From a virus, in the IMG/VR virus record IMGVR_UViG_3300037087_000773: DNA of 46,145 nucleotides; one strand, given 5' to 3'. Position 1 is the stretch's first letter, and each line of letters starts with the position of its first letter. Position numbers and translations under genes: made by a program. This document shows, piece by piece, positions 1 through 46,145 of this stretch. The notes beneath the pieces were generated by a model. That model did no database searches. It was given only the letters and a program-made list of their open reading frames with translations, and was not told the DNA's origin.

Positions 1-2424
1 TTATTGTTTTCTATTACCTTTTAATTCGTTGTATTTCACCATTAAATCTTTAAAGAGAGTTTCTAATGGAGTACCTTTAACTGTTTCAAGAATGGAGTTA
101 ATACCACCTGAATTATCAAATAAAGCGGACAATCCACCTTTCTGTTCTTTAAGATTTCTTGCGAGAATTTCCGTCTGACTAACACCAGCTAATGAAATTA
201 AGGCTTCAATTAATCCCGGTTGAATTGCTTCGAGTTTTTGTTTGGTTTCCCCAACCGTAATATCACTTAAAGCTTTTCTCAGATCAATCTGAAGTTGATT
301 TTTATTCTTTTCATCAGACATTTCTATTCCGTTGACTTTACTTGAAAATTCAGCTTCAGACATTCTTCCTTTCCTTTCTTCTTCATTCAATTTAGCCTCT
401 TCTTCAATGATGGAGAGTCTTTTATGAATATCAAGAATATCTGTCTGATTCTTTTCTTCAATTTTCTTTCTGTTAACTTCTTCTTGCCTGTGAAGAAATT
501 TTTCTTCCTGTTCTAACATTAAAAGTTTAAGGTTGTTTTCGATTGTTTTTTTCTGGACACCTTTTAAGAGTTGATCAATATTTGAATCGTCAATAGATGT
601 TCCAAGTACTTCAACATCATAAATTCTCATTCCATTTTCATCAAATTTTCTACCAATTCTTTTCTTCGTTTCAACATTCTGGTCTCCAAGTATGGTATTA
701 CGAATAATATCAACACCACTCTTTTGAAATTCTTCAATGGATACTTTCTTAATCGTGTTCCTTAAAATTGAACGAAGATTCTGAGTAAGTAATTTGACAT
801 AGTTAGAAACTGTAAACCAATTCTTTTTATCAGCTTCTTCGAAATTAACCCTATAAGAAAGACGAATCTTACTGTTAACCATGTCTGATGTTTCAACTTC
901 TACAATATCAGAAACGATATTATTGTTGATTTGTAAATAAACAGTTTTTAGAAGTTCGTGGTCTGTTTTTGGTTTACCAGTTGAAAGTTCAAGAACTTCA
1001 AGAGTTTCATCATATTTCAACATGATAATTTTTGGACCAATTTCAACCCTACGATCACCTTTTTTACTGATGACTTGTACTGCGTACCCCGGCCATACAT
1101 TAATAGTAACGGCTCCATCATATTTTGTATCAAGAGTAAGAGTTCTTGGTTTTGTATATTTATTTTTCCTTTTTGATTCATCAGCGAATTCACTATCGAA
1201 ACTCTTGGATAATTTTAATTTATCACTTGCCACATAACCTCTCGATAAGGTTTCTGGTGTTTCATTTAAAGTGAATTGTTCGAGTTCTAAATTATGTCTA
1301 ATAGCATCTTCATTTCCGGGGAATAATAAACGAACTGTTTTTTGGTCAAGGATTCTCTTAACTATAACTTCTGTTCTCGGATCAGGTAATAACATCACTG
1401 GTCCTTCAACCAAGTTAATTTTTCCACTTTCTTTATCAAGAACATATCTTGCTTCTCCCTCTGGAACGGTTGTTGCGTAATGAATCGGATCTTGACCTTC
1501 GTATGTTACGATTGAATGTTCAGCACGGGGAGTATAAATCTTTGTGTCTTTTCCAGTAATGAATAATTCTTCACCAGCTTCATGTTTTTCTGTACCGTCT
1601 GTATAATCAGCGATAACCTTAATATAAAGTCCCATATTGTCGTTAAGTTCAATAGCACGGAACTTATGCTTCCCATTTATTTCAACGAAAGTTTCGGTTG
1701 GTTTCGGAAATACAACGGCTGGTCCATTAACAAATCTCTTTTCACCATTTTCGTCAAGAAGAATACAATACTCCAACATTTCGAGTGTTTCAGCTTTACG
1801 AACATAGGAAACATTTCTATCACCTCCCATTGGAGCCACTTCCATACCTGTCGGTGGGATGAAGAAACTAACATCAGTACCCTTAATAACAATAAGTTTA
1901 CCTGTTACCAGATTTGATTTATCAAAAATATCTTTCTTAGTCTTATCGTCAGCGGCCCCAACAGCAACTGTTTTTGTGATATTTTCAACAGCCTCTTTTT
2001 CATTATATACCCTAATTGAAAGGTATTCATTTGATTTTAATTGATGTCCATCAATAACCCTTGCCAACTGACCGGGATAAAGAGCGAATGTTTCGGGACC
2101 CGAAATATTTACTTTTTTACCGATGTTTAATTTAGAAACAGCCTGTTTGGATTTAGCTGTTGGATGTTGATTTCCTTCAGCTGGATTGATCAATTCAATG
2201 TATTGACCTTCATTGGCCCTTACCCATGAGAAAATAGCATCGTTTTTAGAATCACATGCTACAAACTTACTAATCTGGTCATTGTAATAAACAAGTTTAT
2301 CCGTATCCGAAATGGATGTTTTGAACGGACCAACTACTACTTCTACACTACCAGTTGTTCCATCTTGAATGAACGCATACGTTGACTGAGATAAAACAAG
2401 GTCACCTTTTTTTTCGTTTTCCAT
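1..2424 (-). CDS. Major vault protein (MVP) homolog, complete 807 aa
   Basis: N-terminal MVP-repeat signatures are present: VGPFKT (MVP EVGPKTY), TFALYPGQ (MVP PFPLYPGE) and GKLIVIKGTDVSFFIP (MVP GDEWLFEGPGTYIP). The C-terminal coiled-coil cap helix is present (EEVNRKKIEEKNQ...EEERKG) and the tail reads LISLAGVSQTEILARNLKEQ. The ATG is at 2422-2424 (cat on the plus strand) and the TAA stop is at 1-3. Confidence 0.85.
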   Translation of the reverse strand: MENEKKGDLVLSQSTYAFIQDGTTGSVEVVVGPFKTSISDTDKLVYYNDQISKFVACDSKNDAIFSWVRANEGQYIELINPAEGNQHPTAKSKQAVSKLNIGKKVNISGPETFALYPGQLARVIDGHQLKSNEYLSIRVYNEKEAVENITKTVAVGAADDKTKKDIFDKSNLVTGKLIVIKGTDVSFFIPPTGMEVAPMGGDRNVSYVRKAETLEMLEYCILLDENGEKRFVNGPAVVFPKPTETFVEINGKHKFRAIELNDNMGLYIKVIADYTDGTEKHEAGEELFITGKDTKIYTPRAEHSIVTYEGQDPIHYATTVPEGEARYVLDKESGKINLVEGPVMLLPDPRTEVIVKRILDQKTVRLLFPGNEDAIRHNLELEQFTLNETPETLSRGYVASDKLKLSKSFDSEFADESKRKNKYTKPRTLTLDTKYDGAVTINVWPGYAVQVISKKGDRRVEIGPKIIMLKYDETLEVLELSTGKPKTDHELLKTVYLQINNNIVSDIVEVETSDMVNSKIRLSYRVNFEEADKKNWFTVSNYVKLLTQNLRSILRNTIKKVSIEEFQKSGVDIIRNTILGDQNVETKKRIGRKFDENGMRIYDVEVLGTSIDDSNIDQLLKGVQKKTIENNLKLLMLEQEEKFLHRQEEVNRKKIEEKNQTDILDIHKRLSIIEEEAKLNEEERKGRMSEAEFSSKVNGIEMSDEKNKNQLQIDLRKALSDITVGETKQKLEAIQPGLIEALISLAGVSQTEILARNLKEQKGGLSALFDNSGGINSILETVKGTPLETLFKDLMVKYNELKGNRKQ

Positions 2425-2442
2425 AAAATTTTTTGTTATTTA

Positions 2443-2739
2443 TTATTTGTTAATTTTTTGTTCTTTAACTGTTATCTTATTTGATATTTGACCATTATTT
2501 TTCACGAGATGATCAAAAGCGAAATTAGCATTTTCTTCATCATCTAATCTTAGACTATAAGTTTCTGCATATTCCGTATCATTAGAATAATAATATACAT
2601 GGCTCACATAAAAATTAGTCATTTCTTCTATTTTATTTTGATATGTCCCATTTTTATAATTACTAATCGACACTTCTTTAATTAATCGTACTGATTCACT
2701 GACAACCACGATTGGACCAGATTTCTTTTTTCTAAACAT
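2443..2739 (-). CDS. hypothetical small protein (98 aa)
   Basis: Intact ORF on the same strand as its neighbours, packed 19 nt from the MVP start. No recognisable motif. Confidence 0.4.
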   Translation of the reverse strand: MFRKKKSGPIVVVSESVRLIKEVSISNYKNGTYQNKIEEMTNFYVSHVYYYSNDTEYAETYSLRLDDEENANFAFDHLVKNNGQISNKITVKEQKINK

Positions 2740-2803
2740 ATAAACTTGTTTTTACTTATTATATATGAGAAAAATATGAAAGTTTAAAATTGTCGGGAAA
2801 TTA

Positions 2804-3313
2804 TTATATATTTTTATCTTTTGTTTTAGGATACAAAAGATTTTTCACCAGATTGGAAGAAAAATGATCAATCATTTTCCCTTCTTTATTTGGAATTTTT
2901 GTTATTTGAATTTTTTCTATCTCAGGATATAATTTATCTATAAAGTTTTTGAGGTCATCAATTCCTTTTTTATATTCGAAAGGTGGATTGAAATATTCAG
3001 GAAAACAATCCTTAAAAGTGGAAACTTCCTTTAAAATATCCAATGATCTCACATATAATCTATTATTAACAATAGTACTACGAATTTTGAGAAATTCTTC
3101 GATATGATCCTTAAAACGATGAACAAGATTGGGGGTTTCTACCACTTTTAACAGACCAATAACAAAAGCATCTTCTTCTTTTAACATTATAGGTTTATCA
3201 TCTAAAATAAGAGTTTTAATTTCATCTTCTTTTTTATCTTTAAGACAAAATCTTTTGTACTCCAACCATAGACATCTTTTAATTATGTCACTCGGATTCA
3301 CTAATATCTGCAT
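2804..3313 (-). CDS. hypothetical protein (169 aa)
   Basis: Intact ORF in the co-directional minus-strand gene array. No recognisable domain. Confidence 0.45.
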   Translation of the reverse strand: MQILVNPSDIIKRCLWLEYKRFCLKDKKEDEIKTLILDDKPIMLKEEDAFVIGLLKVVETPNLVHRFKDHIEEFLKIRSTIVNNRLYVRSLDILKEVSTFKDCFPEYFNPPFEYKKGIDDLKNFIDKLYPEIEKIQITKIPNKEGKMIDHFSSNLVKNLLYPKTKDKNI

Positions 3314-45109: not shown

Positions 45110-45204
45110 GTAGTAATTTTTTCTTTTATATATTAATTTTTTGACCAAAAGAAAACCCAGTGGCGAGCTATGACCGAAGTCACAACAGGTCCTAAGCTGT
45201 TTCT

Positions 45205-45478
45205 TTATTTTACGATAAGTAATTCAAATTCTTTCCAGTTTTGAATACCATGTGAATCATTAGAAATTAATATTTTTCTATCTCCATTCTTTTTCCAATC
45301 ATTATTTGTATATACACAACTATCAGGATTTGATATAAATTTCAATTCCATCAGATGTTAATCTGGCATATAATTTAGTACCAGCTTTTTGTATCACTAC
45401 TAAATTATCATAAACATTAACATCATCAAATTTGTTTGAATATTCTTCGTTTAATTTAAATTCATTTAAATGTTTCAT
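45205..45478 (-). pseudogene. frameshifted leader-family gene (MKHLNEFKLNEE...)
   Basis: Read directly from the sequence. Segment 1 (45326..45478) reads MKHLNEFKLNEEYSNKFDDVNVYDNLVVIQKAGTKLYARLTSDGIEIYIKS*. Segment 2 is in the +1 frame (45205..45333) and reads SNPDSCVYTNNDWKKNGDRKILISNDSHGIQNWKEFELLIVK*. The frame break is near ATCAAATCC (about 45323-45333). Confidence 0.35.
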
Positions 45479-45488
45479 CGTAAAAATA

Positions 45489-46142
45489 TTATTTTTTCAT
45501 CTCGGATAAACATAACAAAATAGCTTGCTTTGTTCCGTCAATAACATATTCATATAATCCTCTTACTCCTTGATTTTTAGTAAAAAAACCATCTTTAACT
45601 AAAAATTTATCTATATCTTCCTTATGTTTCAAATAGAAATCGAAAATATCTTCATCTTGAATCAATCCCTCTAAGGTAACAGTCTTTTCTGTTTTCTTGG
45701 GTGGGGTGGAGTTCTCATTAACCCAATCAGTAATAAAATCATTAGTGTCAACATTCTGTGTTTGTGATGATTTTTTAACTAACTCCATTAAATCATTTTT
45801 CAATACTTGAAATTCTATGGCCTCGTCAATTTGATTGATATTAAATGAATATAAATATGTCTGAATCATGTTATATAGCATATCCATATTATAGTAAGCT
45901 TCATCTACTGATTTCTCAATGCCATCTCTATCTGTAATTTTATCCTTTGTTATGATATAATACTTATCACCATTAAATGTGAAATCAACAATATATCCAT
46001 CTTTTGTTTCTGTTATAGAATTGAAATATTCATTTTGACTAACTTCGTTGTTATAAGTAAAATCTTTAATTTCTCTGGCCAAATTATGAAGATCATTCAT
46101 AGAATGATAAGTTGATTTTTCTAAAAATTTTTTATAAGTCAA
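45489..46142 (-). CDS. hypothetical protein with a leader-like N-terminus (MTYKKFLEK), 217 aa
   Basis: Intact ORF starting 3 nt from the window end. K-K-F-L-E-K resembles the leader with an L-x-E element. Confidence 0.45.
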   Translation of the reverse strand: MTYKKFLEKSTYHSMNDLHNLAREIKDFTYNNEVSQNEYFNSITETKDGYIVDFTFNGDKYYIITKDKITDRDGIEKSVDEAYYNMDMLYNMIQTYLYSFNINQIDEAIEFQVLKNDLMELVKKSSQTQNVDTNDFITDWVNENSTPPKKTEKTVTLEGLIQDEDIFDFYLKHKEDIDKFLVKDGFFTKNQGVRGLYEYVIDGTKQAILLCLSEMKK

Positions 46143-46145
46143 TAT

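Follow-up and report, generated by a model that had tools for sequence, protein, structure and literature searches.

A 46-kb window carrying a vault-protein gene and a glycan island, very probably from the genome of a huge phage related to Mahaphages

The DNA analysed here (the window, 46,145 nucleotides, IMG/VR record IMGVR_UViG_3300037087_000773) comes, with high confidence, from the interior of the roughly 736-kb genome of a huge tailed phage that has not been cultured. This phage lies in or beside the Mahaphage clade, for whose members Bacteroidota are the predicted hosts. The features of the window are listed in Table 1.

A replicon that carries a T4-type terminase

Positions 1-12424 of the window are 100% identical to the metagenomic contig k141_203136 (736,551 bp) of ENA ERZ27254251, in which the window is placed at roughly 139-185 kb, and positions 33754-46145 are 99.9% identical to WOOD18-1 scaffold_11 (222,004 bp). 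The right flank, into which the window runs on without a break, shares 20,474 nt at 100.000% identity with IMGVR_UViG_3300037087_000150 (85,869 bp). This contig encodes a 774-aa T4-type large terminase (Pfam Terminase_6N at 62 bits, cut-off 22), situated about 79 kb past the right end of the window. The replicon of the window thus carries a hallmark gene of the kind that the preliminary description had hoped to find in flanking sequence. No capsid, portal or tail genes were read on the phage's own contigs, of which about 145 kb of the roughly 736 kb were covered.

The best matches among 50,697 phage records are LR756501 and LR756503 (MVP 69%, PolB-like protein 59%, NusG 56%). These are 735,411-bp Lac Pavin genomes (LP_PHAGE_COMPLETE_CIR-CU-CL_32_25 and _32_18) assigned to the Mahaphage clade, with Bacteroidetes as the predicted host; LR756501 is circular and manually curated, and is present in the TerL and MCP trees of its source paper (Al-Shayeb et al. 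2020, PMC7162821). It encodes two TerL paralogues, UvsX, DnaB, RNR, 59 tRNAs and a tail fibre (PHROG match 2.7e-40), and its terminase is 54% identical to the 774-aa protein by tblastn (51-63% in tblastx segments). Homologues of 25 of the 51 window proteins and of 24 of the 57 tested flank proteins are found in LR756501, in conserved blocks. The phage is placed in the clade by similarity and synteny rather than by a terminase phylogeny of this analysis. The host phylum is probably Bacteroidota; the best cellular match to the MVP, from a Cytophagales MAG (52%), is an indirect pointer to the host, and matches at 41-46% are spread over many phyla.

The preliminary description had also considered a prophage-like island. 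A prophage or genomic island in the chromosome of a Bacteroidota (or other bacterium lacking Shine-Dalgarno sites), or a small symbiont with a reduced genome, would fit the bacteria-like grammar of the genes, the NusG of bacterial type, the TnpB and the glycosyltransferases of LPS type (GT25, WavE); Nannocystis, Thermoflexibacter and Saprospira do carry MVP homologues on their chromosomes, and some symbionts have genomes as large as this 736-kb contig. We nevertheless consider this very unlikely, because about 100 kb was read on both sides with no shift to core cellular genes, no ribosomal-protein, rRNA or tRNA genes were found in the sequence covered, and the window contains no Rfam family of any kind. 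Roughly half of the ORFs lack a family assignment, the sequence is collinear with the curated phage genome, whose size class fits 736,551 bp, and contigs of 222-736 kb from several samples repeat it at 99.9-100% identity.

A giant extrachromosomal element of non-viral kind, either a megaplasmid or a Borg-like element, with captured phage genes is less likely still. The very large share of hypothetical proteins and the lack of a directly read structural gene would suit it, and Borgs are reported to include a vault-like protein (PMC12660748). However, the terminase is on the same replicon, the close relative has a terminase, a capsid (from the published tree), a tail fibre and T4-like genes for replication and recombination, and the Pfam matches include no plasmid replication or conjugation genes.

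Gene layout and expression signals

The window is 93.7% coding, with a GC content of about 28%. Among 40 same-strand junctions there are four 4-nt overlaps, three 1-nt overlaps, five other overlaps and 16 gaps of up to 25 nt, which bears out the bacterial-type overlaps noted previously. The reported lack of Shine-Dalgarno sequences is also confirmed, in the sense of no enrichment: GGAG, GAGG or AGGA occurs at -20 to -5 of 4 of the 51 starts, on a par with the background of 6.0% of random positions, and the regions upstream of starts are A-rich. Shine-Dalgarno-like cores are found at 9% in LR756501, and huge phages with S1 genes seldom carry such sites (PMC7162821). An S1-domain gene is found in the right flank, about 12 kb from the window. 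A TATATA(A/G) motif was seen upstream of starts in the window and LR756501 alike.

Expression by bacterial-type machinery, to which the bacterial NusG equivalog points, would explain why the genes stand, as in bacteria, in short clusters of one direction whose stops and starts overlap. Shine-Dalgarno sites would be missing because neither the presumed host lineage nor the phage lineage uses them; translation presumably initiates via A/U-rich leaders, and the phage's own S1-domain protein may assist.

Terminator hairpins, a further element of the preliminary description, are not enriched (3 against 6.1±3.0 expected in 1-20000, and 7 against 7.4±2.6 in 20001-40000). The only clear bidirectional terminator in the window is that at 42276-42312, with minimum free energies of -16.4 and -18.2 kcal/mol on the two strands compared to a background mean of -6.0.

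Table 1. Features of the window, with counterparts in LR756501
Positions	Strand	Feature	Basis	LR756501 counterpart
1-2424	-	MVP-like protein, 807 aa, prokaryotic/phage major-vault-protein family	Pfam MVP_shoulder 6.2e-26, Vault_3 2e-11	17.2-19.6 kb, 69%
2443-4618	-	Five small ORFs (98, 169, 152, 127, 143 aa), function unassigned	No Pfam/PHROG matches	294.6-295.6 kb, adjoining gmd (169 aa, 57%; 143 aa, 78%)
4699-5724	-	gmd, GDP-mannose 4,6-dehydratase; island left edge	Pfam GDP_Man_Dehyd 3.4e-134	296.6-297.5 kb, 74.5%
6267-13004		Seven island genes, the first a 375-aa protein without assigned function; also a DUF4254 protein, and 282-aa and 120-aa proteins without assigned function	Pfam	301-322 kb and 581-582 kb, 35-87%
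7439-8698		Sugar C-methyltransferase (one of the seven)	Pfam
8716-10632		Double FkbM methyltransferase (one of the seven)	Pfam
12033-13004		GT1-like protein (one of the seven)	Pfam
13646-18493	+	1615-aa multidomain glycosyltransferase/methyltransferase: two GT2 and Methyltransf_24/TylF	Pfam	305.6-307.1 kb, 51%
19963-21207	+	Solo TnpB, RNA-guided endonuclease family	Pfam OrfB_IS605, Cas12f1-like_TNB, HTH_OrfB_IS605	None found
22770-23309	-	NusG, phage-encoded, bacterial general type	TIGR00922 161.8 bits, cut-off 135.7	314.9-315.5 kb, within glycan island, 56%
23328-24927	-	NUDIX hydrolase, DUF559/Vsr-like endonuclease-domain protein, nucleoside deoxyribosyltransferase-like protein	Pfam; last two matches weak
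25032-31822	+	Sugar-activation/decoration operon	Pfam; NCBIfam partial matches to sugar-1-phosphate nucleotidyltransferases
25032-26399, 27317-28444	+	HAD phosphatase + nucleotidyltransferase fusions	Pfam
26646-27314	+	222-aa ORF	No Pfam match
28441-29403, 29410-30102	+	FkbM methyltransferases	Pfam
30102-30896	+	WavE-like protein	Pfam
30893-31822	+	GT1-like protein	Pfam
32545-34653	+	702-aa protein, function unassigned	No Pfam/NCBIfam match; one insignificant PHROG match	None found
35221-41214	-	Glycosyltransferase operon: two unassigned, two GT2, 799-aa double GT25, GT10 (fucosyltransferase-like)	Pfam	324.9-337.5 kb, 45-56%, order kept
41304-42275	+	DeoC-family aldolase-like protein; island right edge	Pfam DeoC 4.7e-9; TIGR00126 113.5 bits, slightly below cut-off 117.3	337.6-338.3 kb
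42276-42312		Bidirectional intrinsic terminator, between convergent genes	AAAAAAACCCAGAAAAATCTGGGTTTTTGTTTTT
42313-46145	-	Small conserved phage ORFs	tblastn	Join collinear block 712.9-715.0 kb, 32-79%

The vault protein, the glycan island and NusG

The MVP-like protein had been described as eukaryote-type. It is a real MVP homologue, which matches human and rat MVP in the PDB collinearly (E 1.8e-20), and its predicted secondary structure has β repeats, a shoulder and a 118-residue helix, in a low-confidence model. The eukaryotic label does not hold: there are at least 5754 homologues, and identity is 38-52% to those in bacteria and on more than 100 IMG/VR viral contigs. Judged by sequence comparison, the protein is one of a large family found in prokaryotes and phages and is not of the eukaryotic type; its function is putative. 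Phage MVP is widespread. The portion of this phage's own genome with the MVP and glycan genes was not found in IMG/VR. A Ro60-like TROVE protein is encoded about 130 kb from the MVP gene (49% identical to its LR745206 counterpart), and such proteins are frequent in phages without MVP.

Most of the window is filled by a glycan-synthesis island of about 37-40 kb. It contains gmd (present as described earlier), sugar nucleotidyltransferase/phosphatase fusions, and at least nine glycosyltransferase and at least six methyltransferase proteins. All of these enzymes are soluble, and NusG is embedded among them. The product of the island would be a methylated deoxy-sugar glycan, built on an acceptor in the cytoplasm or inner leaflet; this acceptor may be virion proteins or host envelope precursors. 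The MVP gene flanks the island. One glycan enzyme had been likened to A064R, but no chlorovirus protein appears among the PDB matches of the 1615-aa and 638-aa proteins, and those of the 1615-aa protein are solely bacterial GT2 enzymes.

NusG falls below the cut-offs for UpxY (55.8 against 100), LoaP (82 against 125) and RfaH (36.8 against 144.5), and Spt5 gives 17 bits. The preliminary description had it as a non-syntenic gene. The bacterial-type NusG is indeed there, but it is kept in all five Mahaphage records longer than 630 kb, and is therefore a trait of the lineage and not a stray gene. Its product, borne on the island, would keep RNA polymerase processive. The putative homing endonuclease nearby (23744-24448) shows no more than a marginal match of DUF559 type, at 22.8 bits where the cut-off is 20.6. 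TnpB, in contrast, is present as claimed (NCBIfam NF040570 at 303.9 bits, cut-off 100); it is bordered by non-coding stretches of about 300 nt, and has no Rfam match.

Chloroviruses and mimiviruses typically have a large repertoire of glycan enzymes. A fragment of an NCLDV, a giant virus of eukaryotes, would account for such a repertoire here, with its multidomain enzymes, and for the MVP with its match to eukaryotic structures, the dense packing, the low GC, the missing Shine-Dalgarno sites and the TATATA-like motif, but we regard it as the least probable reading, already all but refuted, since the replicon has a T4-type terminase, the closest relative is a tailed-phage genome that has been curated, NusG belongs to the bacterial equivalog rather than to Spt5, the MVP is distant from eukaryotic MVP, chlorovirus proteins in the PDB give no sequence match, and NCLDV core genes are absent among the Pfam matches of the window and flanks. 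A huge phage of the Mahaphage lineage is the preferred reading, and matches the large phage of a host lacking Shine-Dalgarno sites, such as Bacteroidota, that had been offered as one possibility. Given the kinship with the Lac Pavin Mahaphages, the bacterial layout without Shine-Dalgarno sites and the vault gene are therefore features of a known phage lineage and not signs of a giant virus, and the taxonomic question of the window is resolved in favour of a huge phage lineage that is already known.

Comparison with known systems

The rat and human vault shells (PDB 4V60, 4HL8) are collinear with the window protein over the repeat domains, shoulder and cap helix, the 118-residue helix is predicted to come after an α/β shoulder, and the protein exceeds the cut-offs of Pfam Vault_3 and MVP_shoulder. 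The relationship is distant, at about 76 bits compared to more than 800 bits for prokaryotic and phage homologues. Eukaryotic MVPs have 861-893 residues, no PARP4 partner was seen for the window protein, and its assembly into a cage is only putative. The gut Caudoviricetes ctOa11 and ct2Ri15 also encode MVP-family proteins of about 810 aa, which are nearer to bacterial than to eukaryotic MVPs (bioRxiv 10.1101/2023.11.10.566534). These are unrelated, Firmicutes-associated phages of ordinary size, whereas the window gene belongs to a 736-kb genome; neither matched the window MVP by tblastn against a phage collection that may not include them.

A nusG borne by a large phage is also known from cyanophage S-CRM01 and Microcystis phage MaAM05. 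The position inside a polysaccharide-type gene cluster recalls the genes for UpxY and RfaH, although these and LoaP are specialised paralogues of polysaccharide operons and the window protein scores as a general NusG.

Among other records of the Mahaphage clade, the PolB-like protein is 29-42% identical to those of LR756502, LR756504 and LR745206 (634-642 kb), LR756500 (462 kb) and the Lak megaphages of Prevotella, which are much more distant records. The three 634-642-kb genomes share NusG at 35-39% and LR756500 shares MVP at 50%; no MVP match was found by tblastn in those three genomes or in Lak phages.

LR756501 and LR756503 are much closer. They have the same genome size class, the shared window proteins at 28-87% identity, a glycan island with embedded NusG, an MVP, a T4-type TerL, PolB-like and S1-domain proteins, few Shine-Dalgarno sites and the TATATA(A/G) motif. 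The flanks are collinear with 683-727 kb of LR756501, and the stretch at 42313-46145 runs on into right-flank PolB-like, DnaJ and S1-domain genes. However, typical protein identity is only about 50-55%, megablast gives no nucleotide match, and the GC content of LR756501 is 32%. Neither TnpB nor the 702-aa protein is present in LR756501, which lacks roughly half of the window genes; its 390-aa TerL paralogue is absent here from the syntenic place. The island and MVP have been relocated: here they lie between homologues of LR756501 715.0 and 716.8 kb, whereas in LR756501 the island is at 294-338 kb and MVP at 17-20 kb.

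Replicon and lineage

The window (46,145 bp, about 28% GC) carries about 51 ORFs; with the bacterial code, 93.7% of it is coding. Scans with Pfam, PHROGs and NCBIfam found no capsid, terminase, portal or ribosomal genes inside it and left many ORFs without any match, and comparison of the proteins of no assigned family with PHROG gave nothing informative.

The exact major vault protein (MVP) homologue of the window is encoded on contig k141_203136 of ENA ERZ27254251 (736,551 bp), to which positions 1-12424 are 100% identical. Positions 33754-46145 are 99.9% identical to WOOD18-1 scaffold_11 (222,004 bp), a second assembly of the same phage, and the same sequence was found again in several JGI and Logan samples. 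In all, about 145 kb of the roughly 736 kb of this phage was read; the flanks were examined for about 10 kb to the left of the window and 30 kb to the right. In the last part of the window, 46020-46145, a difference of about 100 nt separates these two assemblies and resembles a change in repeat copy number. This is probably an assembly breakpoint, and the IMG/VR contig begins at about the same point.

A scan of IMG/VR with a terminase alignment retrieved IMGVR_UViG_3300037087_000150 (85,869 bp), which also encodes one of the flank proteins at 100% identity. Its positions 6,921-27,460 match WOOD18-1 scaffold_11 immediately to the right of the window at 100.000% over 20,474 nt, and judged by coordinates it starts at about the right end of the window. 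It encodes a 774-aa Terminase_6N protein, which is 54% identical (tblastn) to the terminase of the Mahaphage genome LR756501, with tblastx segments of 51-63%; the genes around it are DnaB-like, RNR and Ro60-like. The nucleotide identity and the Terminase_6N match together place a T4-type large terminase on the same phage, about 79 kb beyond the window. The preliminary description had posed the lineage as a question to be decided by hallmark genes in the flanking sequence, and this is such a gene. Homology searches with the two TerL (large terminase) paralogues of LR756501, and inspection of the contigs of six proteins (P0059, P0006, P0007, P0084, P0105 and P0102), had returned only other Mahaphage-like phages, and a scan of JGI metagenomes with the TerL alignment gave no contig from the samples of this phage.

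The part of the phage carrying MVP and the glycan genes was not among the IMG/VR matches, where the best MVP match is 52%. JGI contigs with the exact MVP gene exist, and the terminase part of the same genome is present in IMG/VR. Viral calling evidently misses those parts of huge phages that are poor in hallmark genes.

Features of the window and of the surrounding phage sequence
Feature	Position	Strand	Evidence
MVP homologue, 807 aa	window 1-2424	minus	Pfam/PHROGs/NCBIfam scans
GDP-mannose 4,6-dehydratase, left edge of glycan island	window 4699 onward		Pfam/PHROGs/NCBIfam scans
Glycan island, about 37 kb	window 4699-42275		
Solo TnpB	window 19963-21207		NF040570 303.9 bits, cut-off 100
NusG	window 22770-23309	minus	TIGR00922 161.8 bits, cut-off 135.7
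NUDIX hydrolase	window		Pfam/PHROGs/NCBIfam scans
DUF559-type endonuclease domain	window		marginal match, Pfam/PHROGs/NCBIfam scans
Bidirectional terminator hairpin	window 42276-42312		A and T run flanks
S1-domain protein, 387 aa	fetched stretch L034, 11112-12275, about 12 kb right of window		62% identity to LR756501 683.8-685.0 kb
Large terminase, 774 aa	78.8-81.1 kb of IMGVR_UViG_3300037087_000150		Terminase_6N 62 bits, cut-off 22, E 8.2e-17

The window is thus part of a Mahaphage-like huge phage, and the taxonomic ambiguity is resolved. A large phage, a prophage-like island and a nucleocytoplasmic large DNA virus (NCLDV) had all been considered, and the first is right: the window is no NCLDV, prophage island or cellular genome. 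The NCLDV reading had drawn on a supposedly eukaryote-type MVP and an A064R-like enzyme. Pfam matches, for the window and as precomputed for the flanks, include no double-jelly-roll major capsid protein (MCP), A32 ATPase, D5 primase-helicase, VLTF3 or multisubunit RNA polymerase, and the homologues of the PolB-like protein sit in phages. A cellular chromosome finds no better support: tRNA and Rfam scans of all 46,145 bp found nothing, no ribosomal protein is among the Pfam matches in the window, the flanks hold no tRNA or ribosomal genes (tRNA scan on the fetched stretches L001 and L007), and nusG stands between a NUDIX gene and ORFs of no assigned family, not in a secE-nusG-rplK context. The flank genes comprise DHFR, guanylate kinase, ferredoxin, ResIII helicase, PolB-like, DnaJ, S1-domain, RNaseH-like, PhoH, phosphoribosyltransferase, SET-domain, epimerase and radical-SAM proteins, and many of no assigned family.

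Gene layout and expression signals

With the replicon settled, the reading of all other features of the window is fixed: they are phage genes, with bacterial expression lacking Shine-Dalgarno (SD) sites. SD-like cores at -20 to -5 occur at 4 of the 51 starts, as against 6.0% of random positions, so the reported absence of SD sequences is real; the leaders are A-rich. The ATGA and TAATG overlaps are also there, since among 40 same-strand junctions four have ATGA-type 4-nt overlaps, three have 1-nt overlaps, five overlap in other ways, and 16 have gaps of 25 nt or less. The terminator hairpins are borne out only in part. Intrinsic-terminator-like sites are not enriched (3 against 6.1 ± 3.0 expected in 1-20000, and 7 against 7.4 ± 2.6 in 20001-40000), and what stands is one textbook bidirectional hairpin between the convergent DeoC-like and 156-aa genes, the sole clear intrinsic terminator of the window. 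Sigma-70-type promoter matches in the window are at chance level.

In LR756501, 219 of the 999 ORFs have ATATATA or TATATA(A/G) upstream (20 expected), with sharp peaks at -30 to -21 and -15 to -11 from the ATG. TATATA precedes 13 of 50 window genes (2.3 expected), and the motif stands 20-30 nt upstream of many ATGs, for example those of the genes at 2739, 4618, 13004, 24448, 25032, 41214 and 41304. This motif may be a phage promoter element. The late promoter of phage T4, TATAAATA, is similar to it.

Expression would proceed by bacterial-type coupling without SD sites. Such coupling would fit both a Bacteroidota host, which is the predicted host here, and the phage's own S1-domain protein. 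In huge phages with possible rpS1 genes, SD sites are rarely identifiable (Al-Shayeb et al., 2020, PMC7162821).

TAG is the stop codon of only 2 of the 51 window ORFs. LR756501 has 59 tRNAs, two of them with a CTA anticodon. These two are adjacent, at 5174-5327 of the fetched stretch L011 (LR756501 at about 690.6 kb), and are labelled Pyl by ARAGORN; they are candidate TAG suppressors.

Glycan island, TnpB and the MVP-family protein

In addition to the dehydratase at its left edge, the glycan island encodes C- and FkbM-type methyltransferases, a 1615-aa protein that combines two GT2 domains with a methyltransferase, HAD-phosphatase/nucleotidyltransferase fusions, and WavE-like, GT1-like, GT2, double GT25, GT10 and DeoC-like aldolase proteins. 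The supposed A064R-like enzyme was not recovered. When the 1615-aa and 638-aa proteins were compared with all PDB chains by phmmer, they matched bacterial GT2 or methyltransferase entries, or nothing, and showed no similarity to A064R, whose domains are presumably present in the PDB. All the island proteins are soluble. In the whole window only two ORFs (3336-3794 and 13061-13501) have a hydrophobic segment, one each. A cytoplasmic acceptor is plausible because the island has no flippase, polymerase, priming transferase or polytopic membrane protein; candidates are proteins of the virion or, at the membrane's inner leaflet, precursors of the host.

The NusG encoded within the island scores above the TIGR00922 equivalog cut-off for bacterial NusG, the general elongation factor of transcription, and also matches the Pfam NusG and KOW domains. 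It falls below the cut-offs for UpxY (55.8 against 100), LoaP (82 against 125) and RfaH (36.8 against 144.5), and does not pass the Spt5 model either. An operon-specific paralogue of the UpxY/RfaH type is therefore ruled out on HMM scores, and the function assigned to NusG is putative.

The presence of TnpB was confirmed by its NF040570 score and by Pfam matches to OrfB_IS605, Cas12f1-like_TNB and HTH. It has about 300 nt of non-coding DNA on either side (19654-21519). No TnpA (Y1 transposase) was found near it, the adjoining ORFs having no Pfam match, and the element has no Rfam omega-RNA match and no convincing terminal hairpins. There is no homologue in LR756501. Given the lack of TnpA, of an omega-RNA match and of an LR756501 homologue, TnpB looks like a recent insertion in the island.

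The MVP homologue is a true member of its family, with Pfam scores of 91.2 bits for MVP_shoulder (cut-off 25) and 44.3 for Vault_3 (cut-off 28.8), and it matches solved MVPs in the PDB collinearly (E 1.8e-20). It is not of eukaryote type, as had been proposed: prokaryotic and viral proteins dominate among its relatives, of which the nearest come from metagenomes and phages (50-80% identity) and from bacteria (41-52%). The score against human MVP is only 76 bits. The AlphaFold model of the monomer is too poor for fold searching (pLDDT 55, pTM 0.25), and in this low-confidence model the secondary structure follows the MVP plan, with beta repeats, a shoulder of alpha/beta type and a helix of 118 residues.

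The homologues number at least 5754. Grouped at the 90%-identity level, they include hundreds of clusters with about 50% identity; the contigs that carry them reach 531 kb, and many are 200-530 kb long. In IMG/VR the matching contigs (38-52%) number at least 118, and many span 100-500 kb. In GTDB genomes 321 stretches match at 41-52%, with isolates including Nannocystis exedens, Thermoflexibacter ruber and Saprospira. Several GTDB matches assigned to metagenome-assembled genomes (Saccharibacteria, Methanosarcinales, Promethearchaeota) are on short contigs, and could be mis-binned phage DNA. Among 160 loci compared, MVP has no conserved gene neighbour other than antisense-ORF artefacts.

Just after the terminase, at 13077-14684 of the fetched stretch L345 from an IMG/VR contig of the same phage, lies a Ro60-like protein with TROVE (77.5 bits) and Ro60 vWA domains. 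The vault protein TEP1 likewise binds RNA through a TROVE domain. A vault-like RNP of MVP and this protein is unsupported by co-occurrence: the pairing is not specific, because about 100 phage records contain Ro-like proteins, and LR745206, which gives the best match, has no MVP.

In the literature searched, phage MVPs are the subject of a single 2023 preprint, which describes the 'first viral MVPs' in two gut phages and reports them as closest to bacterial MVPs (bioRxiv 10.1101/2023.11.10.566534); nothing was found there on huge phages. We suggest, as a doubtful reading, that the gene would be no stray acquisition, belonging to a large and well-conserved family common in jumbo and huge phages, and that its product may form vault-like shells in infected bacteria, a phage-encoded compartment or container for cargo that would differ from the chimallin phage nucleus. 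Any function assigned to MVP is putative.

Comparison with the Lac Pavin Mahaphages

Megablast of the first 25 kb of the window against 50,697 phage records gave no match, and its relatives came to light by protein-level searches only. The best phage-database matches of MVP, PolB and NusG are all Mahaphage records. In tblastn, MVP shows 68.8% identity with LR756501 and LR756503 and 49.6% with LR756500; the PolB-like protein shares 58.7% with LR756501 and matches LR756504, LR745206, LR756502 and Lak-A2 more weakly; and NusG shares 56% with LR756501 and 35-39% with the three genomes of 634-642 kb.

LR756501 and LR756503 (LP_PHAGE_COMPLETE_CIR-CU-CL_32_25 and _32_18) are 735,411-bp genomes from Lac Pavin that were closed into complete circles by curation. 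They were assigned to the Mahaphage clade, and Bacteroidetes are their predicted hosts; in the supplementary table 9.7% of genes have their best match in Bacteroidetes, and the next phylum reaches 3.0% (Al-Shayeb et al., 2020, PMC7162821). The entire LR756501 record was fetched for comparison. It has a collagen-like tail fibre (PHROG, 2.7e-40), UvsX-like, DnaB-like and RNR genes, and two T4-type terminase paralogues, at 609,226-611,493 (Terminase_6N 34.9 bits) and 699,854-701,026 (54 bits; cut-off 22 for both). The paralogues are 45% identical over 275 aa, and the N-terminus of the longer one gives a weak intein-splicing match. An MCP of LR756501 is listed in the tree of the source paper (PMC7162821). 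The published gene numbers (TerL 583 and 721, MCP orf437) are not transferable to LR756501 because the deposited record is rotated, and none of 20 further proteins scanned against PHROG proved to be an MCP or portal. Near the places predicted from those numbers, at 434-441, 452-454 and 527-538 kb, lies a paralogous family with at least seven members, 364-504 aa long, with no Pfam match among the five scanned and no PHROG match among the three scanned.

Of the 51 window proteins, 25 have homologues in LR756501 (28-87% identity), as do 24 of 57 proteins tested from the flanks; these homologues lie in conserved blocks. The glycan island corresponds as a block to 294-338 kb, with NusG at 314.9-315.5 kb, and MVP to 17.2-19.6 kb. 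The rightmost window genes correspond to 712.9-715.0 kb, and the flanks are collinear with 683-727 kb. It follows from this mapping that the island and MVP sit here between the homologues of the 715.0 and 716.8 kb positions of LR756501, a different genomic place, so that a large rearrangement separates otherwise related genomes. The LR756501 segment 694.6-702.2 kb, which carries the shorter, 390-aa TerL paralogue, is also absent at the syntenic site here, within the roughly 30 kb followed rightward along WOOD18-1 scaffold_11 (fetched stretch L036).

Gene content and synteny shared with a clade member, in a genome well over 200 kb (736,551 bp), suggest that the phage belongs to the Mahaphage clade; it is a divergent, new member of an already known lineage. 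Three little-studied traits of this lineage are seen here, namely an MVP that is widespread in prokaryotes and phages, a NusG retained within a glycan island whose enzymes are all soluble, and the position-specific TATATA(A/G) element ahead of start codons, none of which overturns current understanding. The window represents a second, divergent genome in the 735-kb class of Mahaphage-like phages, in which a conserved glycan island has been rearranged at large scale.
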